Shown here: one piece after another, positions 1-32,815 of the stretch | Layout: each line of letters begins with the position of its first letter | Numbering within the stretch: position 1 is the first letter of the stretch | NCBI RefSeq assembly: GCF_964355755.1 | Contig: NC_092674.1 | Coordinates: 16,306,001-16,370,000, forward strand | From: Antedon mediterranea | Lineage: Eukaryota > Animalia > Echinodermata | Direction: 5' to 3' | DNA length: 64,000 nt | Program-made: the position numbers and the translations under genes | Notes under the pieces: generated by a model | The model's input: only the letters and a program-made list of their open reading frames with translations | Told to the model about the DNA's origin: nothing | Databases searched by the model: none

Positions 1-456
1 AAATTATGGAATCATAATGTACACATTAGTCCATTATTACAATTGAACCTACAACCTACAATGCATGCATTGTATTGTATCAATATTTTATGGAAAAATA
101 TACAATATATAGGTAAATTTTAATAGTTTTTATTCTCATAAGACAAAATTATTACATAAATAAATATTATTTATTTAGTAACATTCATTATAATGATATT
201 TATATTGCAAATATTTAAAATCAAAGATAAATTTTGAATTATTATATATTACAGAAAAAATAAAGTTCATTCATGGTGGATGAACTATGAGACTAGTGAT
301 TTTTAAAGATATTTTTATAAGATCACAAATTGTGAAATTATGTAAACATTTTAATCCATTATCATTGTTTAACCAACAAAGTAAAATAATTTTATATTTA
401 ATTTCTATATTTAAACCAAATTGGTAAAAGTAAGCAAACATAAGCAATACACTTAC

Positions 457-528
457 AGTGTTTCCAATGCTGTCAAACCAGCAAATGCATTGGCTTGTAA
501 TGTACTTATTTGGTTATACCTCAAATTC
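457..528 (-). CDS. LRR exon 12: NLRYNQISTLQANAFAGLTALETL
   Basis: 72 bp, intact splice sites. Confidence 0.88.
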
Positions 529-3500
529 CTTAAAAGTAAAAAGAATGCACAGTATAAGTAAATCACAATATCCAAGCTGTTTTTAAATTATTTTAGTTTT
601 TCTGTCACCTCAAATGTTGAAATGTCTACATTCCTGTACATTATTACTCTATTAGTGATGTCAAAATATGTTATGTTAAAATAAATATGGTAAATATAAT
701 TATAAAAATAAAAAATGATAGAATATATTCTATTATTAATGTCTAATTGTATTTCTAAATTAAAACCAAATAAATAAACTGATTGAAACAACATAAAATT
801 ACTCTAAACCATCAGCTGTAGTTCAACATTAACAACTGCACCCCCCCCCCCCCCCCCCCCCCCCCCTCTGGTCACTATTATCATGGACCTTTAAATTAGC
901 ATGAATCTATATAAATTCTTTCTTTCTTTGGTTGCAGAATATTTGTTGTATCAATAAACTTATGTTAAACCGATTCAATTTCAATTATTATCTTACAAAA
1001 ATAAATAATTCAATCATGGTGGATACATTTTAAAAATGTTGATTTTAAAATAATTCTTTTTGCTATACATACAAATATAAAATATATATTTATATTTTAA
1101 TAATTTTTTTCTCATAAGACAAAATTAATACATAAACAAATACTAATTATTTAGTAACATTTGTTATAATAATATTTATATTGTGATATTTAAATTAAAA
1201 TTTATTTTGAAATATTATTATTAAAAAAAATAAAGTTCATTCATGGTGGATGAGAAAAAAACTATTAATTACTAAATTATAAATTACATTATTACTCTAT
1301 TAGTGATGTCAAAATATGTTATGTTAAAATAAATGTGGTAAATATAATTATTTTAACAATTTGCAAAGTATAAGTAAATTGCTATATATCCAATCTGTTT
1401 TTACATTATTTTGTTGAAATGTCTACATATATATATATTGTGATATTGATTTTAAATTATTATGTATTATTAAAAAAATTAAGTTCAAACTATTGATTTT
1501 TAAAGTTATTTATTACAAGATCACAAATTGTGAAATTATATAATAATATTAATCCATTATCATTGCTTAACCAACAATGTAAAACAATTTGTAATTTAAT
1601 TCTAAATTTAACCAAATTGGTAAAACTAAGCAAACATAAGCAATACACTTACAGTGTTTCCAATGCTGTCAAACCAGCAAATACATTGGCTTGTAATGTA
1701 CTTATTTGGTTACCGTACAAATACCTTAAAAGTAAAAAGAATGCACAGTATAAGTAAATCACAATATCCAAGCTGTTTTAAAATTATTTTAGTTTTTCTG
1801 TCACCTCAAATGTTGAAATGTCTACATTCCTGTACATTATACAGTAGTTATACTGCATGTACTCTATTGTATGTACTTTAGTGATGTCAAAATATATTAT
1901 GTTAAAATAAAAATGTGGTAAATATATTTAAATTCACATTTTTGAATTGTTTTACGACAATAAATAATTCAATCATAGTAGATAAATAAAAAAAAATGTT
2001 GATTTTAAAATTCTTTTTACTGTAAATAATTAAATTATGGAATCATAATGTACACATTAGTCCATTATTACAATTGAACCTACAATGCATGCATTGTATT
2101 GTATCAATATTTTATGGAAAAATATACAATATATATGTAAATTTTAATAGTTTTTATTCTCATAAGACAAAATTATTACATAAATAAATATTAATTATTT
2201 AGTAACATTCATTATAATGATATTTATATTGCAAATATTTAAAATCAAAGATAAATTTTGAATTATTATATATTACAGAAAAAATAAAGTTCATTCATGG
2301 TGGATGAACTATGAGACTAGTGATTTTTAAAGATATTTTTATAAGATCACAAATTGTGAAATTATGTAAACATTTTAATCCATTATCATTGTTTAACCAA
2401 CAAAGTAAAATAATTTTATATTTAATTTCTATATTTAAACCAAATTGGTAAAAGTAAGCAAACATAAGCAATACACTTACAGTGTTTCCAATGCTGTCAA
2501 ACCAGCAAATGCATTGGCTGGTAATGTACTTATTTGGTTATACCTCAAATTCCTTAAAAGTAAAAAGAATGCACAGTATAAGTAAATCACAATATCCAAG
2601 CTGTTTTAAAATTATTTTAGTTTTTCTGTCACCTCAAATGTTGAAATGTCTACATTCCTGTACATTATACAGTAGTTATACTGCATGTACTCTATTGTAT
2701 GTACTTTAGTTATGTCAAAATATATTATGTTAAAGCTTAGGTACAGTCATGAATTTTAAATATAATATTTGGTTAATTGTACATAAATCAAATATTTGTA
2801 ACAGAAATCGAGACGAAAAAACAAGAATTTCCCTTAATATGGTCAAATACAAAATTTGGCAAAATTCTTCCATAAAAACCAGGAAGACTTTTTTTCAGTA
2901 GTTAGGTAGTTAACCTAATGTAATAACATGACTCCCTAGACGGTGAAAAAAGATGGTGGATATACGGTGGATAATTTTTGCTATAGCATGAAAATAAAAA
3001 TCTGAAGTTGAATAAAAATATCAGAAATGTAATATTCAAGTTATTATTACCTATATTTAGTCATCCGAAAAAATTTTTTTACCACACTGTTTATTTTTCA
3101 TAGCTTTTTAAAATTTGTAATTTAAGCAATACACTTACAGTGTTTCTAATGCTGTCAAACCAGCAAATGCATTGGCTTGTAATGTACTTATTTGGTTACC
3201 GTACAAATACCTTAAAAGTAAAAAGAATGCATAGTATAAGTAAATCACAATATCCAAGCTGTTTTTAAATTATTTTAGTTTTTCTGTCACCTCAAATGTT
3301 GAAATGTCTACATTCCTGTACATTATACAGTAGTTATACTGCATGTACTCTATTGTATGTACTTTAGTGATGTCAAAATATATTATGTTAAAATAAAAAT
3401 GTGGTAGATATATTTAAATTCACATTTTTGAATTGTTATATTTTACAACAATAAATAATTCAATCATGGTAGATAAATAAAAAAAAATTCTAAATTAAAA

Positions 3501-6500
3501 CCAAATAAATAAACTGATTGAAACAACATAAAATTACTCTAAACCATCAGCTGTAGTTCAACATTAACAACTGCACCCCCCCCCCCCCCCCCTCTGGTCA
3601 CTATTATCATGGACCTTTAAATTAGCATGAATCTATATAAATTCTTTCTTTCTTTGGTTGCAGAATATTTGTTGTATCAATCAACTTATGTTAAACCGAT
3701 TAAATTTCAATTATTATCATACAAAATTAAATAATTCAATCATGATGGATACATTTTAAAAATGTTGATTTTAAAATAATTTTTTTTTGCTATACATACA
3801 AATATAAAATATATATTTATATTTTAATAATTTTTTTTCTCATAAGACAAAATTAATACATAAACAAATACTAATTATTTAGTAACATTTGTTATAATAA
3901 TATTTATATTGTGATATTTAAAATAAAAATTTATTTTGAAATATTATTATTTAAAAAAATAAAGTTCATTCATGGTGGATGAGAAAAAAACTATTAATTA
4001 CTAAATTATAAATTACATTATTACTCTATTAGTGATGTCAAAATATGTTATGTTAAAATAAATGTGGTAAATATAATTATTTTAACAATTTGCAAAGTAT
4101 AAGTAAATTGCTATATATCCAATCTGTTTTTACATTATTTTGTTGAAATGTCTACATATATATATATTGTGATATTGATTTTAAATTACTATGTATTATT
4201 AAAAAAATTAAGTTCAAACTATTGATTTTTAAAGTTATTTATTACAAGATCACAAATTGTGAAATTATATAATAATATTAATCCATTATCATTGCTTAAC
4301 CAACAATGTAAAACAATTTGTAATTTAATTCTAAATTAAACCAAATTGGTAAAACTAAGCAAACATAAGCAATACACTTACAGTGTTTCCAATGCTGTCA
4401 AACCAGCAAATACATTGGCTTGTAATGTACTTATTTGGTTACTGTACAAATCCCTTAAAAGTAAAAAGAATGCACAGTATAAGTAAATCACAATATCCAA
4501 GCTGTTTTAAAATTATTTTAGTTTTTCTGTCACCTCAAATGTTGAAATGTCTACATTCCTGTACATTATACAGTAGTTATACTGCATGTACTCTATTGTA
4601 TGTACTTTAGTTATGTCAAAATATATTATGTTAAAGCTCAGGTACAGTCATGAATTTTAAATATAATATTTGGTTAATTGTACATAAATCAAATATTTGT
4701 AACAGAAATCGAGACGAAAAAACAAGAATTTCCCTTAATATGGTCAAATACAAAATTTGGCAAAATTCTTCCATAAAAACCAGGAAGACTTTTTTTCAGT
4801 AGTTAGGTAGTTAACCTAATGTAATAACATGACTCCCTAGACGGTGAAAAAAGATGGTGGATATATGGATAATTTTTGCTATAGCAAGAAAATAAAAATC
4901 TGAAGTTGAATAAAAATATCAGAAATGTAATATTCAAGTTATATTACCTATATTTAGTCATCCGAAAAAATTTTTTTACCACACTGTTTATTTTTCATAG
5001 CTTTTTAAAATTTGTAATTTAAGCAATACACTTACAGTGTTTCTAATGCTGTCAAACCAGCAAATGCATTGGCTTGTAATGTACTTATTTGGTTACCGTA
5101 CAAATACCTTAAAAGTAAAAAGAATGCATAGTATAAGTAAATCACAATATCCAAGCTGTTTTAAAATTATTTTAGTTTTTCTGTCACCTCAAATGTTGAA
5201 ATGTCTACATTCCTGTACATTATACAGTAGTTATACTGCATTTACTCTATTGTATGTACTTTAGTGATGTCAAAATATATTATGTTAAAATAAAAATGTG
5301 GTAGATATATTTAAATTCACATTTTTGAATTGTTATATTTTACAACAATAAATAATTCAATCATGGTAGATAAATAAAAAAAATTTCTAAATTAAAACCA
5401 AATAAATAAACTGATTGAAACAACATAAAATTACTCTAAACCATCAGCTGTAGTTCAACATTAACAACTGCACCCCCCCCCCCCCTCTGGTCACTATTAT
5501 CATGGACCTTTAAATTAGCATGAATCTATATAAATTCTTTCTTTCTTTGGTTGCAGAATATTTGTTGTATCAATCAACTTATGTTAAACCGATTAAATTT
5601 CAATTATTATCATACAAAATTAAATAATTCAATCATGATGGATACATTTTAAAAATGTTGATTTTAAAATAATTTTTTTTTGCTATACATACAAATATAA
5701 AATATATATTTATATTTTAATAATTTTTTTTCTCATAAGACAAAATTAATACATAAACAAATACTAATTATTTAGTAACATTTGTTATAATGATATTTAT
5801 ATTGTGACATTTACAATAAAAATTTATTTTGAAATATTATTATTTAAAAAAATAAAGTTCATTCATGGTGGATGAGCAAAAAACTATTAATTACTAAATT
5901 AAACCAAATTGGTAAAACTAAGCAAACATAAGCAATACACTTACAGTGTTTCCAATGCTATCAAACCAACAAATGCATTGGCTGGTAATGTACTTATTTT
6001 GTTATTGTCCAAATCCCTTAAAAGTAAAAAGAATGCACAATATACAGTAGTTATACTGCATGTACTCTATTGTATGTACTTTAGTTATGTCAAAATATAT
6101 TATGTTAAAATAAAAATGTGGTAAATATATTTAAATTCACATTTTTGAATTGTTTTACAACAATAAATAATTCAATCATAGTAGATAAATAAAAAAAAAT
6201 GTTGATTTTAAAATTCTTTTTACTGTAAATAATTAAATTATGGAATCATAATGTACACATTAGTCCATTATTACAATTGAACCTACAATGCATGCATTGT
6301 ATTGTATCAATATTTTATGGAAAAATATACAATATATATGTAAATTTTAATAGTTTTTATTCTCATAAGACAAAATTATTACATAAATAAATATTAATTA
6401 TTTAGTAACATTCATTATAATGATATTTATATTGCAAATATTTAAAATCAAAGATAAATTTTGAATTATTATATATTACAGAAAAAATAAAGTTCATTCA

Positions 6501-9500
6501 TGGTGGATGAACTATGAGACTAGTGATTTTTAAAGATATTTTTATAAGATCACAAATTGTGAAATTATGTAAACATTTTAATCCATTATCATTGTTTAAC
6601 CAACAAAGTAAAATAATTTTATATTTAATTTCTATATTTAAACCAAATTGGTAAAAGTAAGCAAACATAAGCAATACACTTACAGTGTTTCCAATGCTGT
6701 CAAACCAGCAAATGCATTGGCTGGTAATGTACTTATTTGGTTATACCTCAAATTCCTTAAAAGTAAAAAGAATGCACAGTATAAGTAAATCACAATATCC
6801 AAGCTGTTTTTAAATTATTTTAGTTTATTATTAGTTAGTTAGTTAGTTATTAGTTAGTTATTATTACTCTATTAGTGATGTCAAAATATGTTATGTTAAA
6901 ATAAATATGGTAAATATAATTATAAAAATAAAAAATGATAGAATATATTCTATTATTAATGTGTAATTGTATTTCTAAATTAAAACCAAATAAATAAACT
7001 GATTGAAACAACATAAAATTACTCTAAACCATCAGCTGTAGTTCAACATTAACAACTGCACCCCCCCCCCCCCCCCCCCCTCTGGTCACTATTATCATGG
7101 ACCTTTAAATTAGCATGAATCTATATAAATTCTTTCTTTCTTTGGTTGCAGAATATTTGTTGTATCAATAAACTTATGTTAAACCGATTCAATTTCAATT
7201 ATTATCTTACAAAAATAAATAATTCAATCATGGTGGATACATTTTAAAAATGTTGATTTTAAAATAATTCTTTTTGCTATACATACAAATATAAAATATA
7301 TATTTATATTACATTATTACTCTATTAGTGATGTCAAAATATGTTATGTTAAAATAAATGTGGTAAATATAATTATTTTAACAATTTGCAAAGTATAAGT
7401 AAATTGCTATATATCCAATCTGTTTTTACATTATTTTGTTGAAATGTCTACATATATATATATTGTGATATTGATTTTAAATTATTATGTATTATTAAAA
7501 AAATTAAGTTCAAACTATTGATTTTTAAAGTTATTTATTACAAGATCACAAATTGTGAAATTATATAATAATATTAATCCATTATCATTGCTTAACCAAC
7601 AATGTAAAACAATTTGTAATTTAATTCTAAATTAAACCAAATTGGTAAAACTAAGCAAACATAAGCAATACACTTACAGTGTTTCCAATGCTGTCAAACC
7701 AGCAAATACATTGGCTTGTAATGTACTTATTTGGTTACTGTACAAATCCCTTAAAAGTAAAAAGAATGCACAGTATAAGTAAATCACAATATCCAAGCTG
7801 TTTTAAAATTATTTTAGTTTTTCTGTCACCTCAAATGTTGAAATGTCTACATTCCTGTACATTATACAGTAGTTATACTGCATGTACTCTATTGTATGTA
7901 CTTTAGTTATGTCAAAATATATTATGTTAAAGCTCAGGTACAGTCATGAATTTTAAATATAATATTTGGTTAATTGTACATAAATCAAATATTTGTAACA
8001 GAAATCGAGACGAAAAAACAAGAATTTCCCTTAATATGGTCAAATACAAAATTTGGCAAAATTCTTCCATAAAAACCAGGAAGACTTTTTTTCAGTAGTT
8101 AGGTAGTTAACATAATGTAATAACATGACTCCCTAGACGGTGAAAAAAGATGGTGGATATACGGTGGATAATTTTTACTATAGCATGAAAATAAAAATCT
8201 GAAGTTGAATAAAAATATCAGAAATGTAATATTCAAGTTATATTACCTATATTTAGTCATCCGAAAAATTTTTTTTACCACACTGTTTATTTTTCATAGC
8301 TTTTTAAAATTTGTAATTTAAGCAATACACTTACAGTGTTTCCAATGCTGTCAAACCAGCAAATGCATTGGCTGGTAATGTACTTATTTGGTGCCTGCTC
8401 AAAGACCTTAAAAGTAAAAAGAATGCACAGTATAAGTAAATCACAATAGTTGTTTTAAAATTATTTTAGTTTTTCTGTCACCTCAAATGTTGAAATGTGT
8501 ACATTCCTGTACATTATACAGTAGTTATACTCTATACTCTATTGTATGTACTTTAGTTATGTCAAAATATATTATGTTAAAATAAAAATGTGGTAAATAT
8601 ATTTAAATTCACATTTTTGAATTGTTATATTTTACAACAATAAATAATTCAATCATGGTAGATAAATAAAAAATAAAAAAAAATGTTGATTTTAAAATTC
8701 TTTTTACTGTAAATAATTAAATTATGGAATCATAATGTACACATTAGTCCATTATTACAATTGAACCTACAATGCATGCATTGTATTGTATCAATATTTT
8801 ATGGAAAAATATACAATATTTCTGTAAATTGTAATAGTTTTTATTCTCATAAGACAAAATTATTACATAAATAAATATTAATTATTTAGTAACATTCATT
8901 ATAATGATATTTATATTGCAAATATTTACAATTAAAGATTAATTTTGAATTATTATATATTACAGAAAAAATAAAGTTCATTCATGGTGGATGAACTATA
9001 AGACTAGTGATTTTTAAAGATGTTTTTATAAAATCACAAATTGTGAAATTATGTAAACATTTCAATCCATTATCATTGTTTAACCAACAAAGTAAAATAA
9101 TTTGTAATTTAATTCTAAATTAAACCAAATTGGTAAATGTAAGCAAACATAAGCAATACACTTACAGTTTTGTTATTATAATATTTATATTGTGATATTT
9201 ACAATAACAATTTATTTTGAAATATTATTATTTAAAAAAATAAAGTTCATTCATGGTGGATAAGCAAAAAACTATTAATTTCTATATTTAAACCAAATTG
9301 GTAAAAGTAAGCAAACATAAGCAATACACTTACAGTGTTTCCAATGCTGTCAAACCAGCAAATACATTGGCTGGTAATGTACTTATTTGGTTACTGTACA
9401 AATACCTTAAAAGTAAAAAGAATGCACAGTATAAATATAATCACAATATCCAAGCTGTTTTTAAATTATTTTAGTTTTTCTGTCACCTCAAATGTTGAAA

Positions 9501-12500
9501 TGTCTACATTCCTGTACATTATACAGTAGTTATACTGCATGTACTCTATTGTATGTACTTTAGTGATGTCAAAATATACTATGTTAAAATTAAAAGGTGG
9601 TAAATAAATTTTAAAACTTATTTTGTTAAAATAAAATTTCTACAACAAATTCAAATTGTTTGTTAGCAACCATATAATAAATGTATTATCTAATATGTAA
9701 TACAGATTCACTTTCAATTGTTATATCTTACAAAAATAAATAATTCAATCAATGTGGATAAATTTTAAAAATAATAATGAAATGATAGAATATATTCTAT
9801 TATTAATGTAAAATAATGTGTAATTGTATTTCTAAATTAAATGTTAAACTGATTAAATTTCAATTATTATCTTACAAAATTAAATAATTCAATCATGGTG
9901 GATAAATTTTAAAAATGTTGATTTTAAAATAATTCTTTTTGCTATACATACAAATATAAAATATATATTTATATTTTAATAATTTTTTTCTCATAAGACA
10001 AAATTAATACTTAAACAAATACTAATTATTTAGTAACATTTGTTATTATAATATTTATATTGTGATATTTACAATAACAATTTATTTTGAAATATTATTA
10101 TTTAAAAAAATAAAGTTCATTCATGGTGGATAAGCAAAAAACTATTAATTACTAAATTAAACCAAATTGGTAAAAGTAAGCAAACATAAGCAATACACTT
10201 ACAGTGTTTCCAATGCTGTCAAACCAGCAAATGCATTGGCTGGTAATGTACTTATTTGGTTATAGCTCAAATACCTTAAAAGTAATAAGAATGCACAGTA
10301 TGAGTAAATCACAATATTCAAGTTGTTTTAAAATTATTTTAGTTTTTCTGTCACCTCAAATGTTGAAATGTCTACATTCTTGTACATTATTACTCTATTA
10401 GTGATGTCAAAATATGTTATGTTAAAATAAATGTGGTAAATATAATTATTTTAACAATTTGCAAAGTATAAGTAAATTGCTATATATCCAATCTGTTTTT
10501 ACATTATTTTGTTGAAATGTCTACATATATATATATTGTGATATTGATTTTAAATTATTATGTATTATTAAACAAATTAAGTTCAAACTATTGATTTTTA
10601 AAGTTATTTATTACAAGATCACAGATAATTTATTTTTATAAATCAATTGTTTGGTCAACCATAATAAATGTATTATCTAATATGTTAAACAGATTCAATT
10701 TAAATTGTTATCTTACAAAATAAATAGTTCAATCATGGTGGATAAATTTAAGAATTGTTGCTTTTTAAATTTGTTTTACTATAAATAATCATGAAATCAT
10801 AAGGTACATATTAATCCATTATTACAATTGAACCTACAATGCATGCATTGTATTGTGTCAACATTTTATTGATGTCAAAATAAAAATTATTAAAAGTAAA
10901 TATTCATCTCAAAACGTATGAATGTATAGTTGTACATGATATTGTTCACTATAGGTTTAATTATGTTACTCTGCACCCTATATCTTAATTTGTGTTTTAT
11001 TTAGGGTTATCCCTTTGTTCTTATAATTATGTGATGCCACTGCCCTTTTTTAACACTCAAACAAATAAAGACTTGGTTATACTGATCGGTTTGATAAATG
11101 TGTATTTATTGAAGTCTGTGACATTTGTTGAATTTGAATATAATTATCAATTATCAAAGACAAAATTACTACATAAACAAATACTAGTTATTTAGTAACA
11201 ATGATTTTGATATTTATATCGTGAAATTATACAATAAAGGATTTCGAATTATTATATCCTCCAAAAAAAAAGTTCACTCATGAACAAGAAAATGAATTGT
11301 TTCTAGAGTTATTTTTATAAGTATAAAGATAATAAAATTATATAATAATATTAATCCATTATCAATGTGTAAATGTATTTATAAATTAAAAACAAACTGG
11401 TTAAAATAACCAAACATGTAAATTTGCCTTTGTTCCACACACAAAAGAATCACAAAAAGCTGGTAAAAATCTCAAAATACAAACAATATAGTATAAACTA
11501 GCAAATGTGAAAAATTAAAACATTAAAAATAATACAGAGCACTCTACTCTCATTCAGAATGTACACGTCACATTACTTGTTTTAACTACCTTATTTATAT
11601 ATATTCCAAATAGATGATTGACTGATTGGGAGCATGCACATAGCTGACCATGTTATAATTTTTGGAAAACTAAGGCCTACCTACCAAATACCTACAATCG
11701 TTTTAATCATTTTTTTTTTAGTCTATCACATTCTTACGTAAAATGTCGTATACGGATATTGACCAGATTAATGATGAGCCCGTAAACTGATTGAAACCAC
11801 CTAAATATACTGTAGACCGCCACAAGACCAGTAGTTTCACATTAACAAATTCCACCCACTCCCCCTCTGTTCAATATTATCATGATCCTACTGTATAAAG
11901 CATGGACCTATTATCAAAGAAATATAAATTTTGCTCACAGTATGACATAAATTTAGTTAAATTTCAAAATATCGACAAAAGATGTTCTACTTACAATGTT
12001 GTTATTGGATCATACACATTGTACTTAACAAGCTCTGTATGTATATTTGCATTCCATGGATTACATCTAGTGTTATTATAACAATCATCCGAGTAACACG
12101 TCGGGACATTACATGTGCAAGATGCTGGGCATCCGACTATAGGCCCTAATGATTTTGTAAAAAAAAAACAAGCAGTAACTAAAAGTACTGTACTTTGTTT
12201 CTATCTTACATAGTAGAACACTACGATAATGATGAATAATGATGGTGATAACAATGAGTATTTTAAAGATGAACATAAATTCTTATAATTCGATACAGGT
12301 GAAATAAAATCATATCATATTTAAGTTTCAATATTACACTATTTAATTTAACGGTATTGTTTATTTCGTCGTGTTAAACAATGGAATATTATGAAAGGAG
12401 AATAAACGACGCCAAAAGTAGTTTAATCTCTTTTTTCTCTAACTGGGTAAACTCTTGAAAATAGAACTTATTTTTATATAATTTATAAAACAAAACACTC

Positions 12501-14288
12501 CCTCTTAGTCAATAGTGTATTGTAATACCGCCTGTTAGTACTGAAGTTTGTATTAAGTGTGAAATTGTCCTTACATTGACAAATAACACTAGCATCCTCA
12601 TCGTGTCCACAATCGTGTACACTCATTCCATTACATTGTAAAATTACAATACAAGTTTAAAACATTTCTTTATTTACATGCATACTGTTATTAATCCTAG
12701 TTGAGTGTTAGTAGCAGCGGCAGTATATTATCAGGGCATCGGCAGCGGCAGTATATTATCAGGGCATCGGCAGCGGCAGTAGCAGTAGTAGTAGTAATAC
12801 ACGGTATTCTTGGAGTGAGGGGTAATAATATTCTGCCTTACAAATAAGTAAATAAATAGTTTGCGGAAAATGTTTACTAAAGCCAAAAAATGAAATTATT
12901 ATTAATTAATTGTATTAATTACTGCTATTATTTTTAAATTATAAAGTACGACAAATAGAAATCGTATGTGATAATAGGCATACAGAATGGAAGAGATGTC
13001 CGGCGATTAAAACCAGTCAAATCTTATAAAGTGTGACGTAACAATCGTATGTGATAATACGCATACAGAATAGAAGTGATGTCCGGCGATTCAAACCAGT
13101 CAAATCTTATAAAGTGTGACGTAACAATCGTATGTGATAAATAGGCATACATAATGGAAGAGATGTCCGGCGATTAAAACCAGTCAAATCTTATAAAGTG
13201 TGACGTAACAATCGTATGTGATAATACGCATACAGAATAGAAGTGATGTCCGGCGATTCAAACCAGTCAAATCTTATAAAGTGTGACGTAACAATCGTAT
13301 GTGATAATACGCATACAAAATGGAAGCGATGTCCGGTGATCAAAACCTGCCGAATGTTATAAAGTGTGATTGTTATAATAAAGTGTGACGCATACAGAAT
13401 TGAAGTGATGTCCGGCGATTAAAACCAGTCAAAACTAATAAAGTTTAGACAAAAATGTTATTAAAAACGATTATTTTTCCATATCGGGCCTCTCTTTATG
13501 GAAATCCAAAAAACACTTAAGCAAGATTTAATTTAGCATATAATGAGTTAGATGTTTGGGAAATATTCTGCAACAGTAACAATAATGATAAAATGTTATA
13601 TATTCTGGGAACTACAATAATACTTTAATGTGTTTTGACAAATTTAGGGAAAAGAAATGATCTTAAAACTGTACAGCTCGCAGAGAACATTGGTGCTGCA
13701 TTTTTCAGTTGTTGCTCCCCCAACATTGGCACCTTTTTCAAGCTTATTCGCGAATCGTTTCGGTTTGACGTTTGACGCGCGTGTAAAATGCTCAGTGGGA
13801 ACCGGTCTTAAGTGTGTGGATACATCGAAAGATGAACAAAATAGTGCAAAATATTAGTTCTTGAACAAATGGAAAAAACTCTCGCAATTTTACTATTTGT
13901 TCATTAAAAGGTAAACTATTGACAACATTAACTAAAGAATTTGATCACAGTACCGTATATAAAAAATCTAAAATGTATAGTTCGAAAAAATATTTTCATT
14001 TCATTTCAATAAAACATTATAGAACAATGTTGTAAAATAAGGATTAGCCACAAATTCTGAAAAGGTCATCAAATATTATAATGCCTTACAATATTATAAT
14101 ATCTATTAAAAATGATAAATATTAAGAGAAGTAATCATACCGGAATTTGAACCAACATCAGCACAACTAGAAAACGATAACTCCACCAATATTATTACCA
14201 CTTTAAAGACAAACATCTTTTTATGCAATTCAGTACCGTGATGTGCGTAGTAAACTTTATCTCCGAAAGTCATCTCAACGTTTGACAT
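457..14288 (-). CDS. Multi-exon extracellular LRR protein gene (signal peptide + LRRNT + at least 12 single-LRR exons); 3' end lies beyond the left edge of the window
   Basis: Exons 14288 (or 14216)-14141, 12136-11995, then 72-bp exons starting (plus coordinates) at 10203, 9334, 8335, 7678, 6684, 5945, 5036, 4382, 3139, 2481, 1653 and 457. All have AG/GT boundaries and compatible phases (1, then 2-2). Spliced product: MFVFKVVIILVELSFSSCADVGSNS-VGCPASCTCNVPTC...ITTL-(xLxxNQISTL[PQ]AN[AV]FAGLTALETL)n. Confidence 0.9.
1653..1724 (-). CDS. LRR exon 11: YLYGNQISTLQANVFAGLTALETL
   Basis: 72 bp, intact splice sites. Confidence 0.88.
2481..2552 (-). CDS. LRR exon 10: NLRYNQISTLPANAFAGLTALETL
   Basis: 72 bp, intact splice sites. 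Confidence 0.88.
3139..3210 (-). CDS. LRR exon 9: YLYGNQISTLQANAFAGLTALETL
   Basis: 72 bp, intact splice sites. Confidence 0.88.
4382..4453 (-). CDS. LRR exon 8: DLYSNQISTLQANVFAGLTALETL
   Basis: 72 bp, intact splice sites. Confidence 0.88.
5036..5107 (-). CDS. LRR exon 7: YLYGNQISTLQANAFAGLTALETL
   Basis: 72 bp, intact splice sites. Confidence 0.88.
5945..6016 (-). CDS. LRR exon 6: DLDNNKISTLPANAFVGLIALETL
   Basis: 72 bp, intact splice sites; most divergent copy. Confidence 0.88.
6684..6755 (-). CDS. LRR exon 5: NLRYNQISTLPANAFAGLTALETL
   Basis: 72 bp, intact splice sites. Confidence 0.88.
7678..7749 (-). CDS. LRR exon 4: DLYSNQISTLQANVFAGLTALETL
   Basis: 72 bp, intact splice sites. Confidence 0.88.
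8335..8406 (-). CDS. LRR exon 3: SLSRHQISTLPANAFAGLTALETL
   Basis: 72 bp, intact splice sites; conserved Asn replaced by His. Confidence 0.85.
9334..9405 (-). CDS. LRR exon 2: YLYSNQISTLPANVFAGLTALETL
   Basis: 72 bp, intact splice sites. Confidence 0.88.
10203..10274 (-). CDS. LRR exon 1: YLSYNQISTLPANAFAGLTALETL
   Basis: 72 bp, TTTTAAG acceptor and GTAAGT donor. Confidence 0.88.
11995..12136 (-). CDS. LRRNT (N-terminal cysteine cap) exon
   Basis: TATAG| ... |GTAAGT boundaries. 142 bp, phase 1-2. Encodes GCPASCTCNVPTCYSDDCYNNTRCNPWNANIHTELVKYNVYDPITTL. Confidence 0.88.
12961..13445. repeat. Minisatellite, ~84-bp unit, ~5.5 copies, in intron 1 of the LRR gene
   Basis: Repeated ATCGTATGTGATAATA.GCATACAGAAT.GAAG.GATGTCCGGCGATT.AAACCAGTCAAATCTTATAAAGTGTGACGTAACA. 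Confidence 0.92.
14141..14288 (-). CDS. First coding exon of the LRR gene (signal peptide; likely start at the second ATG, 14216)
   Basis: Hydrophobic MFVFKVVIILVELSFSSCA segment. Ends G|GTATG in phase 1, matching the LRRNT exon. Confidence 0.75.
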
Positions 14289-14490
14289 AATATTGTTTCT
14301 TTTAGTATTGTTGCAAAAGAGTTTTAAATAATTAATATAAATCAGTTCACCAGCTGTATTACTTTGCTTAGTGGTTGATATTAATATTTAATTGTTTTGT
14401 TGGAATAAGTAATTACATAGATTGAAGATAAACAGTAATGAATGTGAATTTACTATGTGTACTGTTATTATGAATATAATGTGACTATAT

Positions 14491-14703
14491 CAGGAGTATT
14501 AGTTAGACACTGGTAGTGTACTAACCCTTATTTACTTATGTATATAACAGGAGTATTAGTTAGACACTGGTAGTGTACTAACCCTTATTTACTTATGTAT
14601 ATAACAGGAGTATTAGTTAGACACTGGTAGTGTACTAACCCTTATTTACTTATGTATATAACAGGAGTATTAGTTAGACACTGGTAGTGTACTAACCCTT
14701 ATT
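14491..14703. repeat. Tandem repeat, 57-bp unit, ~3.7 copies, just upstream of the LRR gene start
   Basis: CAGGAGTATTAGTTAGACACTGGTAGTGTACTAACCCTTATTTACTTATGTATATAA repeated. Confidence 0.92.
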
Positions 14704-14715: not shown

Positions 14716-14930
14716 AATCGAGTTCGAACAATACCATGAAAGCCCCAGTGGTCTAATGGTTAGGACATCTGCATATCAAGCAGGCGATCCGAGTTCGAGT
14801 CTCGGTTGGGGCGACTTTTTCTCATTCTCACAGATTTCCTCATCTTTATCGTTTCAAATTAATTAATTAAATTTCAGTATATCACCGGGCGGTTTAGAAT
14901 TAATGTTCATTGCCTGATGTGTGTATATAT
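14716..14930 (+). mobile_element. tRNA-derived SINE-like repeat (cloverleaf head 14742-14813); second degraded copy at ~15383-15560
   Basis: A box TGGTCTAATGG and B box GAGTTCGAGTC. Pairable acceptor, D, anticodon (ATC) and T arms. The flanks are shared by both copies and end in (AT)n. Confidence 0.7.
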
Positions 14931-14985
14931 ATAAACACAAGAGGCAAAGAACATTAATTCTAAACCGCCCGCTGATATACTGAAA

Positions 14986-15027
<42 letters not shown>

Positions 15028-15097
15028 CTTTCAGTATATCACCGGGCGGTTTAGAATTAATGTTCATTGCCTGATGTGTTTATATATATACACACTT

Positions 15098-21969: not shown

Positions 21970-22552
21970 AGGCCAGGTGCGGGCAAAAAATTTCTATTGA
22001 TCATACATTCCAATAATTATCGATCTACAGTTTCCCCTATGTTTCATAATTTTTGGGATTTTATTTGTGTTACACGAGCTTGTTGAAAATAAGCACTTTC
22101 TTATCAGTGGGGGGATAGTTCAAATTATAGTAAAATCTCTATTCTTTTGTACACAAATTTTGTAAATAGAGAGGCATTTTAAAAAGGTATGAAAAATAAA
22201 TGGTGTGGTAAAAAATGTTATCAGATATATAGGTAATATAACTTGAATATTACATTTCAACATACATTCAACTTCAGATTTTTATTTTCATGCTATAGCA
22301 AAAATTATCCACCGTATATCCACCATCTTTTTTCACCGTCTAGGGAGTCACCAGACATGTTATTACATTAGGTTAACTACCTAACTACTGAAAAAAAGTC
22401 TTCCTGGTTTTTATGGAAGAATTTTGCCAAATTTTGTATTTGACCACATTAAGGGAAATTCATGTTTTTTCGTCTCGATTTCTGTTACAAATATTTGATT
22501 TATGTACAATTAACCAAATATTATATTTAAAATTCATGCCTGTACCTGAGCT
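21970..22552. mobile_element. Kolobok-type MITE; one-ended copies also lie in three introns of the LRR array
   Basis: TTAA on both sides, imperfect TIRs AGGCCAGGTGCGGGCA / TGCCTGTACCTGAGCT. 22190-22552 is the reverse complement of the blocks at ~2734-3110, ~4635-5010 and ~7931-8310. Confidence 0.75.
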
Positions 22553-22640
22553 TTAAAGTGACATGCTAAAATCCTAAAAATAAAACCCTTAATGCAAAAT
22601 TGAACAATAATTTTGAATTATTAATATTAATATCATACAA

Positions 22641-24914: not shown

Positions 24915-25241
24915 ATGTTACTTTATGAGATATGAGTTCAGTATGTTACCCTTTATGAGATAGGAGTTCAGTAGGCCTATGTTACCCTTTATGAGATAGG
25001 AGTTCAGTATGTCACCCATTATGAGATAGGAGTTCAGTATGTTACCCTTTATGAGATAGGAGTTCAGTATGTTACCTTTTATGAGATAGGAGTTCAGTAT
25101 GTTACCCTTTATGAGATAGGAGTTCAGTATGTTACCCTTTATGGGATAGGAGTTCAGTATGTTACCCTTTATGGGATAGGAGTTCAGTATGTTACCTTTT
25201 ATGAGATAGGAGTTCGGTATGTTACCCATATGAGATAGGAG
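24915..25241. repeat. Minisatellite, 30-bp unit, ~10.5 copies, abutting the virus-like island
   Basis: ATGAGATAGGAGTTCAGTATGTTACCCTTT repeated. Confidence 0.95.
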
Positions 25242-25321
25242 GTGATCTGTATGCTAGATCGATTAAAAGCCAATCTCGTTTGCGTGTCGTTGTCGTTCAT
25301 CGGCCAGGCGTTGACGGTAGA

Positions 25322-25762
25322 ATGCACAGCGCTCTATCAAATCTGCTCGCCAGCTGTGAAAACGTACGTCTCTTGACCGAATATCATTTGGCGGCCGTGC
25401 GCAATTCGGCCACGAACATTATTGTGACCGGTCCTAAAATTCAATCGAAATCTAACGGCATGAATGATGGCGAAGATGACAACAACAACAACAACACAGA
25501 AGACTTGGTTACCGGAGCAGCCGGAGCGAATCTGATCAAAGCCAGAACCATGGGCGTTCCAATGGCAACTTCTCTACTGGACGACGTTAACAAAACGAGC
25601 ACAGTAGACGAAAAAGAGAAACTTATCGGCGATCTAGTCAGATGCAGAAAGGAGAAGGAAAAGTTGAGAAAGAGTTTTCTTTTCGATAAAAGACGTGAAC
25701 GACACTTGTTACCGGTTATGACGACCGAGGATGTTGGTGACGAGAGAAGTATGTATGTATAA
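25322..25762 (+). CDS. Hypothetical protein (virus-like island)
   Basis: 146-aa ORF from ATG with a charged helical C-terminus; no recognisable domain. Confidence 0.55.
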   Translation: MHSALSNLLASCENVRLLTEYHLAAVRNSATNIIVTGPKIQSKSNGMNDGEDDNNNNNTEDLVTGAAGANLIKARTMGVPMATSLLDDVNKTSTVDEKEKLIGDLVRCRKEKEKLRKSFLFDKRRERHLLPVMTTEDVGDERSMYV

Positions 25763-25801
25763 AAACTCAATCGGGACTCGAACAGGCATCCGCCTCTCTC
25801 G

Positions 25802-26136
25802 ATGTTCTCGTCAGAAACGTTCTATTGGGATCAATACCGGTGTCAGGGGGAGGCGCCGGCAACGTTGCACGCCACGGAACAACGTCTGCGCTTCCAGCGA
25901 AAATGTTACAGCAGATTGTCAGCGATTGTTCGGCATCGTGGCAAGATTTCATCGTCACTGCTCGACGATTGGATGAAAGAATACGGCGTACCGCTGAAAC
26001 CGTGGACAAAGAGAGCGTTTGAGGACATTGAAATGATGATGCCTCTTCTGCCCTACTTTCGATCAGGCTGTGGACGGCGTATGCTCGCCGAAATGCTCGA
26101 CGTTTCTGAACATGATTTCACGTCAACTTTTCAGCT

Positions 26137-26173
<37 letters not shown>

Positions 26174-26182
26174 TCTTCTTGA
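25802..26182 (+). CDS. Hypothetical protein (virus-like island)
   Basis: 126-aa ORF; ends in an (ACT)n tract overlapping the convergent ORF. Confidence 0.55.
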
Positions 26183-27064
26183 TCGTCGAAAGAGAGAGAA
26201 TCTGTGTTGTTTCTTTGTGGAATTCAAAACGGATGCATGCAGCACTGTCGGTCGCACTGCACCATCGGGAAAGAGAAGCGGTGCGCACGCAACAATTGTA
26301 CCGTGCTCGAGTTTTATTTTTCTGTTGACAATCTGTATTCGAAATTCGTCGACAGCAGCAGAAGAAGCAGCAGCAGCAGCAACAGACTGTTGGAAAACAA
26401 AAGTGTCTACAATGCCGTTACAGCCGATGCGTTGAACAGTGTTTTCGTGTTTCACCTCGCCTATCCATTCACCGGGCGTAGGATGCAATGGTGCCGTTGT
26501 TTTCACGAACCTTCCCGACGGTACGTGTACAGTGATGACGGTGTTGCCGTGGAACGCTACAATCGTGTTTGCGTCAAAGAACGAATGCACACTGGTACGT
26601 TTCACATTCTTTTGCTTTTCGTTTTCGTCCATGGAAATTGGATGTCTGAGTAGGACGTTCCACGTTGTTCGGGTACGTCGCAACATCACCAGAAGATGAT
26701 CACCCGCTTGATCCACGTACCATGCGCATAGGTCGCGACCGTGTTGACACGTTGCGTGCGACGTGTACAATTCACCGCCGACGCCCGTATCCAACGACTG
26801 TTCCACGCTCCACGCACCACTATCCAAATCGAACGTTTCAAATTCTTTAGCTCCACCACCGCTTAGTATCAACAAATCTTCGTTCATTCTCGTCAGGCAT
26901 ACCGATTCGTCTGTACGCTTCGTTGTAGAGTTTTGCAATCTTACGAACGTTCCAACGATGGCATTGTATCGATGAAGACGCATCGTCGCGTTCTCCTCGT
27001 CTGCTGGAGATACTGTGTACGCCAGATTCCGAACTACGGTAGTTCGATAGAACGGTGCCGTCAT
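26123..27064 (-). CDS. Hypothetical protein with kelch/beta-propeller-like segment
   Basis: 313 aa. LLILSGGGAKEFETFDLDSGAWS...SHATCQHGRDL resembles a kelch blade (GG...fD...W). Confidence 0.6.
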
Positions 27065-27103
27065 GAACGAAGCGGTAACGTGTACGTATTCTTCCAGCTG
27101 CTG

Positions 27104-27975
27104 TTATGGTATTGATGGTGGTGGAGGTGGCGTTGTTGTTCCGAAAGTGGCAATTTGTCGATGACTGTGACGAACACCCAACGCCGATTGCTCGTTCAAT
27201 CGATGATGATGAAACACTTGTTTTACATAATGTCTCAAATCTTGAACCAGTTGATTGATGGAGGAGAGACGTACAAACGCGATTCTGTACAGCATTTCCG
27301 AATCGTTCAGTAATCTGCCTCGTATGAGTTTAACGAGAGCGTGTTGTTTTCTTCGATGTTCCGTTTTGCCGTTTTTGTTAATCCATGTGTGCACAAGATG
27401 CCAAAGATACGATTCTGGCATATAGTACACACTGTCGTGCGATTTTACTTCTGTCGGCTGATCGTGTCTGGCCGTATCCAGCCAGGTCATCAACTCTTCC
27501 CACTTGAGTTCCTGTTCGTGCAGTTTAATTTTGCCAAACGTTCTGCAAATGGCCAAGATGAAATTCTGTCGGCGGTTCTTCTGGCTTTCAGCAGATCGTG
27601 CATGCACATCTCGTACACGGCAGACGTAAACACGCAGATGGTGTCCTTGCAGCCAATCTTCTCGGCTATACTCAAGCAAGAGATTCGATCCTGATAGGAA
27701 AGAGTGGCGACAAAGTATGAGTTTCTATTCGTGTTCATGAACGTCAACAACGCGTCAACAAGTTGATCGTTTGCCATTCCAATAATGTTTACGCACCCTT
27801 TAGGCTTTTTACTCTCGTACGTGGGTATTATCCAAACCATAATCGTTTTGTCTTTCGATGTACATACTCGAATCTGTTCAGATCCTTTGTAGCCCAACGT
27901 TCTCGGTCGTTGACCGACGTATGCTAGATCTTCACGCGCTTTGTGATGATTGACAAGCAAACGTTTCTCTTCCAT
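27104..27975 (-). pseudogene. Probable single frameshifted gene (MEEKRLL... joined to ...QNFILAICRTFGK...)
   Basis: Two same-strand ORFs overlap at 27490-27679 and the downstream one lacks an ATG start. A frameshift near 27570-27590 would join them. Confidence 0.55.
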
Positions 27976-28037
27976 CTTGTTGTTAACGTCCCGGTTTTCT
28001 TTGTTTGTTTTCGTAAAACACACACACACAAATAATA

Positions 28038-29024
28038 ATGGTATCACGATTCCATCCTTACGCCGCCGGTGATGGTATTAGATGGTACACGGGCATACAG
28101 CCAAATTCACCGATCAAAGCGACAGAACGTCGTGGCGAGTACAGACTCGATGAGACAGACATGACGGCCGGTACGTCGCGTATACCAAATTTCGGCGATA
28201 GAAGAAACTTTATGTATCCAACGTCAACTCACGCACAAAAGGATACGGACGGTGTTCGTGACATAACAACGTATCACGAATTCTTCAACAGATCCATTCA
28301 ATTCAATCGAGGCGATATGCTGTTTCTTTACAACGGTCAAAGGAAAATGTCTACTGCAACACCGGCTCCTGTAAACTGTTACGCGTTACCCGAACCCAGT
28401 TTTAAAGCGAGTACGGACAAGGCAACGGTGCCGTTGCCTCACCTCCAAAACATCATCAAAGAAGAGGTTACACTCGACATCAACGACTGTTTCGATCGCG
28501 ACGTGCCGCACAACGAATACATCAAAACGGTGTGTCAACGACGTGGATTCGACAGCTTTGGAACCGTACTGGCACGCATGAAAACTCCTAGAGATTTCCT
28601 CTCTTACTTTCTGCCTATCGGCTATCAGCTTTCTTTCGGTGGCAATCAATGGTTTACGAACGAATCGTATCCGTGCATAACAACGCAACATTTCGGTAAG
28701 ATGATTACAACACTGTCTGGAGTTCACGAATCGTGTCGATTGAATGCAAAAGCGGGTACTAAACTGTACTTGGCCGTTGGCATGCTACCCGGAGTAACCG
28801 ACGCTCTTAACTATCCATATCCTTCGCTGTTTTTTAGCAACGATCATTATATTCCCAATCAACTAAAGTCTATGGGATTTGTTTGTCGATCGAGAAACGG
28901 TTGTGTGACGCCGTGTATGGTGAAAGCCATCGGAGAGTTTGCTACCGATTTCTACGGTAACGTTCGCAGTCCCGAGATTGAACTGTTTATGAACAGATAC
29001 TTTCGACCGTATCACTTTTCTTGA
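28038..29024 (+). CDS. Hypothetical protein, candidate capsid triplex-like (beta-tulip) protein
   Basis: Intact 328-aa ORF with ordered motifs FNRGDMLFLY ... LPHLQNII ... FLPIGY ... ITTQHFGKM ... AGTKLYLAV ... KAIGEF ... EIELFM. The ORF is secure; the function is inferred. Confidence 0.6.
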   Translation: MVSRFHPYAAGDGIRWYTGIQPNSPIKATERRGEYRLDETDMTAGTSRIPNFGDRRNFMYPTSTHAQKDTDGVRDITTYHEFFNRSIQFNRGDMLFLYNGQRKMSTATPAPVNCYALPEPSFKASTDKATVPLPHLQNIIKEEVTLDINDCFDRDVPHNEYIKTVCQRRGFDSFGTVLARMKTPRDFLSYFLPIGYQLSFGGNQWFTNESYPCITTQHFGKMITTLSGVHESCRLNAKAGTKLYLAVGMLPGVTDALNYPYPSLFFSNDHYIPNQLKSMGFVCRSRNGCVTPCMVKAIGEFATDFYGNVRSPEIELFMNRYFRPYHFS

Positions 29025-29099
29025 CGCGACACACACACACACACACACTATATAATAACGTGTCAGAGCAAAAAAAAAAATCATTCAGATTCGTTCGGT

Positions 29100-29741
29100 A
29101 TGGGAAAGTCAAAGGATATGATTGCGGAATTGAAACAGGAACTTGAAGCTATGCAAGTTGATAAGTTGAGTATGTTACAAGAACAAGATCGACTGAGAGG
29201 AAGAGTAATCGCTGCCGAAAAGTACGCCAACTCGTTACCGCAAAACATGTACAAAGACTTGACACATGCCGCCATGGACGCGCATAGGGATGTGGTAAAG
29301 GAGGAGACACAACGATACGAGATAGACAGCCTAAAGGCAAGACTCGCTGAAATGACTGTGAAGTATGAACAGTTGCGAAGGAAACTGCCCGAAACTTTGG
29401 AATTATGTTCCAAATACAAGGGGGCGACCGAGATGATCAAACTTTTACAAATTCAATGTGAAATCAACAAACAAGACTTTATGAAGGAGCAAGCGGATCG
29501 TCAAATGTTGGCCAGAAGAGCAAACTTACCGTACAAACAAACCGTTACAGAAGTCATACGAAAGCTGAATCTATTGATCGGACAGGATTATGTTGATGGT
29601 GATCTTGAAACAGACTGTGCCGACGTCAATCAAATAGAAGCAAATGTTTGTCATGCAATTGAACCGGTGCAGTTTCCTGAAGATCCATTACTAGACACGT
29701 GCGATCAACTGATGGCCGAATACGGAGCAACGGTGGTGTGA
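29100..29741 (+). CDS. Coiled-coil hypothetical protein
   Basis: 213 aa, heptad-rich. TATA-like TATAATAA ~50 bp upstream and AATAAA at ~29783. Confidence 0.7.
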   Translation: MGKSKDMIAELKQELEAMQVDKLSMLQEQDRLRGRVIAAEKYANSLPQNMYKDLTHAAMDAHRDVVKEETQRYEIDSLKARLAEMTVKYEQLRRKLPETLELCSKYKGATEMIKLLQIQCEINKQDFMKEQADRQMLARRANLPYKQTVTEVIRKLNLLIGQDYVDGDLETDCADVNQIEANVCHAIEPVQFPEDPLLDTCDQLMAEYGATVV

Positions 29742-30520
29742 AACAATTGTGTAAAATGTCATGTATAACATAAGAAAGTAAAAATAAATGCACCACAAAC
29801 CTTAATGTCTTCTTCTTATTTCATTACTGTGCGCGTGTGTTTGTAATATCGATGACAGCTAGTAGTAGGGCCTACTGTAAACGATACAAATAACAACGGC
29901 CAGAGAAGCAAAAACGTAAATTATCTGAGTGGACGTTGATGATGGTAACAAACTATGTAATACACATGACCGACAAAAACGTAAGTGGTATTAAAAAAAA
30001 ACCAGTAGTAACTACCGAATACTTAGTTGGTGCTCAAATACCGATGATGATGATGATAATAATTATAAAGAATTGGTTGAGGCACATACCAATTAAAAAA
30101 TACACAACAATTGGTCTGCGTTTTCTCTTCACCTTTATTTCGAACGGTTTGTTTGTTGGCCTTCACTACACTTAACTACAGTTAAAGCCGCTGATGAGCC
30201 CGCGACGACGTTGTTTCTTTCCAACGTAAGCAAACTCGTGAAACTGTGCTGCCGTGAGTTAACAAAATCTGCCCCATGTCGAATGGATTTTAATTTTCTG
30301 GTAGTTAGAACAACGATCGAATTGATCCAAGACGGATATCTGGATGGTTTTAGATGTTCAGTGTGTACAAATTCATTTCCTTCACAACAGAGAAAAAAAT
30401 AAAACGATTTCAACTAACGTGCTTTCTGCATCTCGAGTACATTTTATGCGGTAGATTGTCTGTGTATGAATACAATGAATGTATATCGAACTCATAGTAT
30501 TGCAAGTGCTCGTGTGTAAA

Positions 30521-30754
30521 TTAAGCGTTTATTTGCTCAATCTCTTTGGCAAGTTTTTGTGTATCCTGACACACGGTTCTATACGTTTTAAAATCACTCG
30601 GTGACGGTACTTCGTCTTGCATCATCACCGTATCCGCCATGAATCTCTCTAAACGTCTGCAAATCAACAATTGCTCTTCACACACTCGACGATAGCTGGG
30701 TATAATGTGCTGATCGAAATGAAGACGAACCTCGTCCAACGTAATATCGTTCAT
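30521..30754 (-). CDS. Small hypothetical protein
   Basis: 77-aa helical ORF from ATG; AATAAA overlaps its last codons. Confidence 0.55.
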   Translation of the reverse strand: MNDITLDEVRLHFDQHIIPSYRRVCEEQLLICRRLERFMADTVMMQDEVPSPSDFKTYRTVCQDTQKLAKEIEQINA

Positions 30755-31044
30755 TGATGTGTCTATTGTAGCTATGCTGGTTGTGATACTCTGAAGGATC
30801 TCTTTTTGATTTCTACCGCCCTACTTTTCGAATATGTGCTCACCGTGCAACACGGGATGATAGTTTTGTGAACTAGGATCATTGTTGCAAAATTGTCTCT
30901 GCTTACTGTCAACGTCATACGAGCACAGTCTACACCCTGCTGCCATCACGGATGTTGCATCATACATACACACACACACACACATATATATAGTATGTAT
31001 ATTTTATTTTTGTCAAGCAAAACACTATGAAGGACCTATCGATA

Positions 31045-31270
31045 GATTTTCTTTTTTGCTACGAAGATCCGCACGGTCTTCTAGAGTTCGAGGACGATTT
31101 TATTTTTTGCAACGAGGATGCGCACGGTCTTCTCGAGTTCGAGGACGATTTTCTTTTTTGCTACGAGGATCCGCACGGTCTTCTTGAGTTCGAAGACGAA
31201 TTTCTTTTTTGCTACGAGGATCCGCATTGTTTGGGGTACGAGGACGAATTTTCTATTTTGTTACGAGGAG
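31045..31270. repeat. 51-bp tandem repeat (~4.5 copies) inside the virus-like island
   Basis: GAGGACGATTTTCTTTTTTGCTACGAGGATCCGCACGGTCTTCTCGAGTTC repeated; open in one frame as (DDFLFCYEDPHGLLEFE)n. Confidence 0.85.
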
Positions 31271-31364
31271 GCTATTTGTAGTACTTAAAAAGAGGCAATG
31301 AGATGACATTAGTTAGTTGATTACGCATCGTCGTATAGAGATGCTGTTCGTTTGGGAGAGAAAT

Positions 31365-32311
31365 ATGGCAGAATTAACAGATCTCTTTCAATGCGAATAT
31401 TGTTTACGGACATGGGAAGGAAACGGTCAATGTCCTTGTTGCAACTATATAGTGACTGAAATGCAGTACGACGCTGGTGATGAAGAAAGTTTACATGCCG
31501 GGGAATGTCATGATGATGATGGTGAGATGACAAGAAGATTGTACAATATTGATTTTCCAATTGATAACGATAGTATAAAGGTGCTGTTCGTTGAGGAAGA
31601 GAAGAAAAATAGCTATATGGCAGAATTGACAGATCTCTTTCAATGCGAATATTGTTTACAGGCATGGGACGGAAACAGTCAATGTCCTTGTTGCAACTAT
31701 ATAGTGACTGAAATGCAATACGACGCTGGTGATGAAGAAATTTACATGCCGGGGAATGTCATGATGATGATGGTGAGATGACAAGAAGATTGTACAATAT
31801 TGATTTGCCAATTGATAACGATAGTATAAAGGTGCTGTTCGTTGAGGAAGAGAAGAAAAATAGCTATATGGCAGAATTGACAGATCACTTTCAATGCGAA
31901 CACTGTTTACAGACATGGGACGGAAACGGTCAATGTCCTTGTTGGTACACGCGCAACGATACAGTGACTGAAATACAATACGAAAACGATCCAGTGTTGC
32001 AGTACAATAATGAAGAATGTTTACATGCCGACAACGCCCGGGAATATCATGATGATGATGATGACATCGTTGATCATGAGATAACAAGAAAGTTGAACCA
32101 TATCGATTTGGATCCAATGTTATGCGAAGAAACGTATAGTAGTAATACATCGAATGACCAATCGATTACCGATTCGCCAATAATCTTTGTTGATTCACCA
32201 CAATCGTCAGCGACGGTGGTAAGCGACGAAGAAGACCATTTGATTACGTGTGACGCGTGCATGAACGTATGGGATGGATTCTCTCAGTGTCCGTGTCTAC
32301 CTACTACCTAG
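31365..32311 (+). pseudogene. Acidic protein with four CxxC-x3-W[DE]G-x2-QCPC putative zinc-binding motifs; triplicated 252/251-bp unit with one frameshift
   Basis: ATGGCAGAATT recurs at 31365, 31617 and 31868. A 1-bp deletion near 31741 (GAAAGTTTAC vs GAAATTTAC) splits ORFs 31317-31781 and 31778-32311. Confidence 0.7.
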
Positions 32312-32589: not shown

Positions 32590-32815
32590 TGTAGATGTAG
32601 ATGTAGATGTAGATGTAGTTGTAGTTGTAGATGTAGATGTAGATGTAGATGTAGTTGTAGTTGTAGATGTAGATGCAGATGCAGATGCAGATGCAGATGC
32701 AGATGCAGATGCAGATGCAGATGCAGTTGCAGTTGCAGTTGCAGTTGCAGTTGCAGTTGCAGTTGCAGTTGCAGTTGCAGTAGCAGTAGCAGTAGCAGTA
32801 GCAGTAGCAGTAGCA

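Follow-up and report, generated by a model that had tools for sequence, protein, structure and literature searches.

A tandem array of hypervariable leucine-rich repeat exons in Antedon mediterranea, probably the ectodomain of a module-shuffling G-protein-coupled receptor

The locus described here is an array of twelve 72-bp leucine-rich repeat (LRR) exons in 64,000 nucleotides of DNA from the crinoid Antedon mediterranea (NC_092674.1, positions 16,306,001 to 16,370,000, forward strand). The whole of this stretch is referred to as the window, and positions are numbered from its first letter. The closest described systems are the G-protein-coupled receptors that contain LRRs (LGRs; G-protein-coupled receptor, GPCR), the brown-algal LRR-ROCO genes, the fungal repeat NLRs and the agnathan variable lymphocyte receptors (VLRs). 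LGRs are known as a conserved group of hormone receptors, most of them single-copy. Type C LGRs (RXFP1/2, C1; GRL101, C2) carry about 7-9 LRRs (PMC9545775) and are marked by LDLa (PMC11863921); in ambulacrarians, crinoids among them, GRL101 exists as one copy (PMC8286064). Some lineages have expanded their own sets of LGRs, e.g. to 41 in Trichoplax (PMC9545775), and phase-2 LRR exons are also present in gonadotropin receptors (PMC11378527). Brown-algal LRR-ROCO genes encode intracellular GTPases with one LRR per 72-bp phase-2 exon, four selected concave-face sites, reported alternative splicing and a proposed immune role (PMC11378527). Fungal high-internal-conservation repeat NLRs (HNWD) are intracellular and built from WD40 and other repeats that are 80-100% alike and hypervariable at about four positions; repeats are described as gained, lost and shuffled through unequal exchange, and repeat-length polymorphism has been shown there (PMC13449251). 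The germline VLR gene is incomplete, with non-functional donor cassettes from which the receptor is assembled somatically (PMC13428168). This assembly takes place in lymphocytes by CDA-driven conversion, and VLRs are LRR-only, ending in CP and LRRCT without any other domain.

By comparison of its sequence with these systems and with other Antedon genes, the window locus probably encodes an LRR-GPCR ectodomain whose diversity comes from selection and from the shuffling of modules in the germline. The signal-peptide exon, the exon of the cysteine cap and the 12 LRR exons were found as one minus-strand gene leaving the window at its left edge, and one open frame spans all of them. The first-pass annotation had reported 12 intact 72-bp phase 2-2 exons with one signal-peptide exon and one LRRNT exon; all 12 copies were recovered on the minus strand, open, bordered by ag before and gtaagt after the exon, with near-identical splice sites and no stop or frameshift in any copy. 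They comprise 9 distinct DNA modules, 9 distinct protein modules and 7 distinct heads, the same seven xLxxN heads that had been listed, and mean column identity among the distinct modules is 88%. The cap exon had no Pfam match and is therefore named 'LRRNT-like'. The features of the gene, from its start to the edge of the window, are as follows.

14141..14288, minus strand: the exon where coding begins, encoding the signal peptide; ATG at 14288, second and likely working ATG at 14216, which gives a typical short hydrophobic leader; phase-1 donor.
11995..12145, minus strand: cysteine-rich N-cap (LRRNT-like) exon with a CPxxCxC motif; phase 1 to phase 2, no LDLa.
10703..11884, minus strand: region of the cap-to-first-module intron holding pieces of repeat-unit introns, 70-88% diverged.
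10203..10274, minus strand: LRR exon E1, head YLSYN.
9334..9405, minus strand: LRR exon E2, head YLYSN.
9100..9171, minus strand: orphan splice donor (near 9165) and flank with the exon gone, likely a module lost by deletion.
8335..8406, minus strand: LRR exon E3, head SLSRH.
7927..8310, unstranded: dispersed element in intron 3, common to introns 7 and 9 and marking one intron family.
7678..7749, minus strand: LRR exon E4, head DLYSN.
6684..6755, minus strand: LRR exon E5, head NLRYN.
5945..6016, minus strand: LRR exon E6, head DLDNN, the most divergent copy.
5036..5107, minus strand: LRR exon E7, head YLYGN.
4631..5011, unstranded: dispersed element in intron 7.
4382..4453, minus strand: LRR exon E8, head DLYSN, identical to E4.
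3139..3210, minus strand: LRR exon E9, head YLYGN, identical to E7.
2730..3114, unstranded: dispersed element in intron 9.
2481..2552, minus strand: LRR exon E10, head NLRYN, identical to E5.
1653..1724, minus strand: LRR exon E11, likely recombinant, with the E7/E9 head and the tail and next intron of E4/E8.
457..528, minus strand: LRR exon E12, likely recombinant, NLRYN head with Q at position 11.
1..456, minus strand: partial intron in which the gene leaves the window; neither a hinge nor a seven-transmembrane (7TM) domain is present in the window.

Since the partial intron at 1..456 is of the type that elsewhere precedes another module, the array likely continues leftward beyond the window. 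The first intron has an 83-bp minisatellite (12960-13444). A 57-bp repeat lies a short way upstream of the leader exon (14486-14703), and inverted repeats of 63-73 nt are found further upstream (14866-15095).

Sequence change among the LRR exons was concentrated in codons of the predicted binding face. Of 18 segregating exon changes, 17 were non-synonymous and 1 synonymous, the latter being the TTG/TTA change (exons 3139 and 5036) that had been singled out as the only difference of its kind. Codons 1, 3 and 4, together 9 nt, took 11 of the 18, and the remaining 63 nt took 7 (p 1.6e-6). Pairwise pN was 0.55 and pS 0.014 at these codons, with values of 0.037 and 0.023, respectively, at codons 6-23. 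Ten copies share their upstream flank; among them the 9 nt of these codons hold 10 changes and 80 nt of the intron flank hold 6 (p 5e-7). Diversifying selection on the strand residues is likely; the clustering is highly significant and the count of non-synonymous versus synonymous changes is borderline. Across 29 distinct modules from 11 Antedon proteins, entropy was highest at positions 1, 3, 4 and 23, and the same four codons took 19 of the 34 exon letter variants among the variants listed from four sequencing runs. The relative P0178, modelled with AlphaFold, has a strand at residues 29-33 that covers module positions 23, 1 and 3 (the single-sequence fold is unreliable past residue 343). 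For LRR solenoids it is established that this strand lines the concave binding face (PMC4731796).

The introns between LRR exons are 582-1171 bp long and fall into about three families, mosaic in make-up, one of which bears the dispersed element of introns 3, 7 and 9. An inverted copy of this element (91%) lies at 22176-22556. The flanking introns had been described as almost identical; this holds for 11 of the 55 intron pairs (96.6-99.7% alike over aligned columns), while the other 44 are 80-94% alike with large indels. The ∼105 nt directly before the exon are near-identical in 10 of the 12 copies. Heads, tails and following introns are re-assorted among the exons, as in E11, and within exons P/Q at position 11 and A/V at position 14 occur in all four combinations, a four-gamete conflict. 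Recombination was inferred from within-exon conflicts of this kind and from the table of intron types, and repeated mutation could explain some of the conflicts; the overall count (121/630 incompatible site pairs, Rm 6) is inflated by non-homologous flanks and was not relied on. Pieces of the unit intron that are older and have diverged lie in the cap intron. A decayed 13th exon was suspected there and was not confirmed, intron homology alone being found. Repeated germline unequal exchange or conversion is proposed as the likely history of the array because mosaic introns, recombinant exons and a likely lost module are the expected leftovers of such exchange. This history carries no information on somatic change.

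The closest relatives were sought by comparing modules with 182 proteins. The best module matches were P0178 (XP_071956189.1, 22/24) and P0175 (21/24), with the next best at 18/24. Both proteins carry 7tm_1, and the Antedon relatives consist of LRRs, a short cysteine hinge and a rhodopsin 7TM, as in type C LGRs; the best solved-structure match of P0178 was relaxin receptor 1 (7TMW, E 1e-88). Bacterial, Capsaspora and metagenome LRR proteins were set aside as nearest relatives, their best modules being at most 18/24. When a profile of the exon and its intron tail was searched, the best named eukaryotic match was P0010 (XP_071963861.1), an Antedon mediterranea 'GRL101-like' GPCR. This match extends into the intron-derived part of the query, the mis-predicted start of P0010 resembles the intron tail of the window, and exon and intron tail are likely homologous between the array and P0010. 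Following P0010 gave 16 Antedon and 3 Anneissia receptors. In a tree of 41 hinge-7TM rows built by a quick method, the 19 crinoid rows formed one clade (SH-aLRT 98) and the 16 Antedon rows another (100). Nine Antedon rows are 92.7-100% alike to P0178 in the hinge-7TM part, while their LRR faces differ. P0056, the only relative with a clear leader, aligned weakly with the window leader and cap (E 2e-4; 1/2000 shuffles reached the score).

The RefSeq proteins named 'GPCR GRL101-like' of Antedon mediterranea (XP_071956189.1, XP_071956203.1, XP_071963861.1 and XP_071949331.1) and Anneissia japonica share with the window gene a scaffold up to 22/24 identical, a similar intron tail, a leader and cysteine cap followed by 24-residue LRRs, duplications of module blocks and the same four variable positions. 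They differ in being automatic annotations, mostly 5'-truncated, whereas the window array is more uniform internally and shows no 7TM within the window. A three-module block is duplicated in P0010, and most public models of the family (P0010, P0054-P0061, P0175-P0181) are without a leader and seemingly start in intron sequence. The window gene likely belongs to a young Antedon LRR-GPCR subfamily, its link to a 7TM domain being one of homology alone.

Like the LGRs (PMC4079206), the window gene has a signal peptide and an LRR ectodomain. It differs from type C LGRs in having at least 12 LRRs and no LDLa: no LDLa-like motif or tblastn match was found in its 5' introns or exons, and the leader joins the cap directly. 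Unlike GRL101, the Antedon relatives are multi-copy and fast-changing. GRL101 proper was ruled out by the missing LDLa and by copy number: a single clade of the tree, which held no true GRL101, contains 16 Antedon relatives, whereas a species has one GRL101 (PMC8286064). The arrangement of one LRR per 72-bp phase-2 exon is shared with the LRR-ROCO genes, as is change at four concave-face sites, but the window gene has a signal peptide and GPCR relatives, and a ROC or COR domain was found in none of the 4 relatives scanned. With the fungal repeats the array shares repeats that are 80-100% alike, a small number of hypervariable sites and signs of exchange.

Contigs of sequencing runs were compared over one 298-base stretch in 4 of 11 runs, where summed depth is no copy number. 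Run X8 is another sample of the same organism; its RNA status is a guess and it also covers intron. Three intron-less module-to-module joints were found in its contigs, with flanks drawn from the window, a 72-nt period and the heads WLYKN, YLDHN and YLSDN, and relatives of the window gene are likely spliced with several modules in a row. Runs X1, X5 and X6 gave 321, 296 and 202 contigs, respectively, that matched one exon and had many letters not seen in the window, which suggests that many more modules exist in the genomes of these runs.

Under the proposed mechanism, hinge and 7TM exons would follow left of the window and splicing would join all modules in their order to give a single long solenoid. 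Exchange between misaligned copies, within the exon-centred core that they share, would add, remove and recombine modules with the scaffold staying uniform, and selection would retain new heads at the strand residues. Paralogs and alleles would thereby combine a signalling unit that hardly changes with surfaces that differ. The first-pass annotation had proposed a diversifying recognition receptor of VLR-like or Dscam-like form; the part that found support is a surface-receptor ectodomain that changes at concave-face positions and bears signs that its modules have recombined, and the form found none. As to role, non-self or immune sensing is favoured, tentatively and at slightly below an even chance, with variable non-self proteins as the most likely ligand class predicted; sensing of a chemical, pheromone or gamete cue is rather unlikely, and other roles take up the rest.

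The crinoid branch has likely dropped LDLa and made the LRR domain a fast-shuffling recognition surface, a design that candidate immune receptors of brown algae and fungi also use. Few studies deal with immunity and chemical sensing in crinoids, and the public gene models appear truncated. The literature searched held no description of the design on a crinoid GPCR; the supplementary LGR lists of PMC8286064, PMC11521371 and PMC11863921 lay outside this search and subscription journals were mostly uncovered. A wider proposal is that the LDLa-less LRR-GPCR family of feather stars might be large and still growing and form an anticipatory non-self repertoire, with module number and order varying between genes, alleles and possibly cells via exon recombination and in-frame skipping. 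A single conserved G-protein switch would then read surfaces over a range like that of VLRs, in a deuterostome that is not a vertebrate; this is speculative and unlikely.

Several results weigh against an LRR-GPCR ectodomain under diversifying selection. In the codon-level comparison across copies pN was far above pS at the x codons, but the bare counts were not significant, neither the plain one (17/18 non-synonymous, p 0.054) nor that of codons 1-5 alone (12/12, p 0.058). No hinge or 7TM piece was found in the window (0 tblastn matches), and any receptor end would lie outside it. The cap exon alone gave no Atlas match and no candidate, with three implausible matches, and had no significant match to P0056 (E 1.8). 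In the profile search, 9 microbial or unnamed-record LRR proteins outscored P0010, because generic LRR arrays add up by repeat number. The tree was made without true GRL101 and RXFP rows. The three heads at the X8 joints are absent from the 12 exons of the window, and the joints therefore come from relatives rather than from the window locus.

The alternative that survives best keeps the same receptor family and makes it chemosensory, or a receptor for pheromone or gamete recognition, rather than immune; it is unlikely but the most serious of those considered. Expanded GPCR families often have sensory roles. In a starfish (PMC6267866) and a triton snail (PMC13403566), GRL101-like receptors show enrichment in the sensory tentacles. 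The starfish receptor, however, has six LDLa modules (PMC6267866) and the window gene none, and near-identical repeats with a few hypervariable sites are tied to recognition or immunity in fungi and algae (PMC13449251, PMC11378527).

Combinatorial in-frame exon skipping, by which one gene would give many isoforms, ROCO-like or, if mutually exclusive, Dscam-like, is unlikely and a little less credible than a sensory role. ROCO genes are described as doing so (PMC11378527), and the shared 2-2 phase and near-identical splice sites of all exons would permit it. P0175 and P0178, with 621 identical C-terminal residues and different 5' LRR modules, could be isoforms or very recent duplicates; their names have no isoform label and both models begin in apparent intron sequence. 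Skipping in frame is possible because the LRR exons are phase 2, and is hence no evidence for combinatorial splicing. Modules are consecutive, rather than one per cluster, in the X8 contigs and protein models of relatives, which argues against mutual exclusion, and the Dscam-like splicing first suggested was not borne out. Docking-selector intron pairing is a feature of Dscam-type splicing. No exact reverse-complement match of at least 20 nt was found in 1-12200, the longest being an 18-nt palindrome, in a search that did not cover imperfect pairing.

A secreted or truncated LRR-only offshoot of the family, or a module reservoir, would have no 7TM. The window itself holds none, and brown algae have LRR-only shuffling loci (PMC11378527). 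All 11 parsed Antedon proteins with related modules carry the hinge-7TM, although the search behind them favoured 7TM proteins, and an LRR-only locus is judged improbable.

More doubtful still is the idea that the repeats expanded neutrally, or that the assembly is false in part, conversion having carried old heads with it. It would fit the borderline count of non-synonymous versus synonymous changes and the blocks that are 99% or more alike, and no contig among the compared runs spans the compared stretch. Against it, synonymous sites within the heads are invariant in the window, 12 copies are without stop or frameshift, an indel mosaic rather than one exact duplicate separates the copies, and runs of a second organism contain the same exon and flank variants.

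The VLR-like assembly of the first-pass annotation, or another programmed somatic rearrangement in immune cells, is very improbable. The 24-residue modules behind a CPxxCxC N-cap vary on the same concave face as VLR modules (PMC4731796), and direct repeats can recombine in any cell. In the VLR germline, however, the cassettes are incomplete and non-functional (PMC13428168), whereas each window module is a complete exon belonging to a germline gene, 12/12 working, in frame and with splice sites. The nearest relatives are LRR-GPCRs ending in hinge and 7TM, the exon changes include many transversions in a spectrum unlike deaminase damage, and echinoderm diversity is described as germline-encoded (PMC13428168).

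Elsewhere in the window, a GC-rich block at 25200-34000 (40-48% against 20-30% around the gene) contains dense intron-less open reading frames (ORFs) on both strands, among them 28017-29024 (335 aa) and 26123-27103 (326 aa). Ten of its ORFs had no PHROGs match and only sub-threshold coiled-coil and RING-like Pfam matches, and the 335-aa ORF had no Atlas match; the block may be a virus or a large DNA element that has integrated. Within it, at 31363-31944 and 32589-32962, are a 251-bp tandem repeat coding for cysteine-rich CxxC motifs and hexamer and trimer microsatellites. The long ORFs at 39314-40057 (247 aa) and 43739-44788 (349 aa) had no Pfam match. A broken minus-strand retrotransposon occupies 52850-59563, with a DUF5641 match at 52850-53455 and further ORF pieces of BEL/Pao-like appearance.

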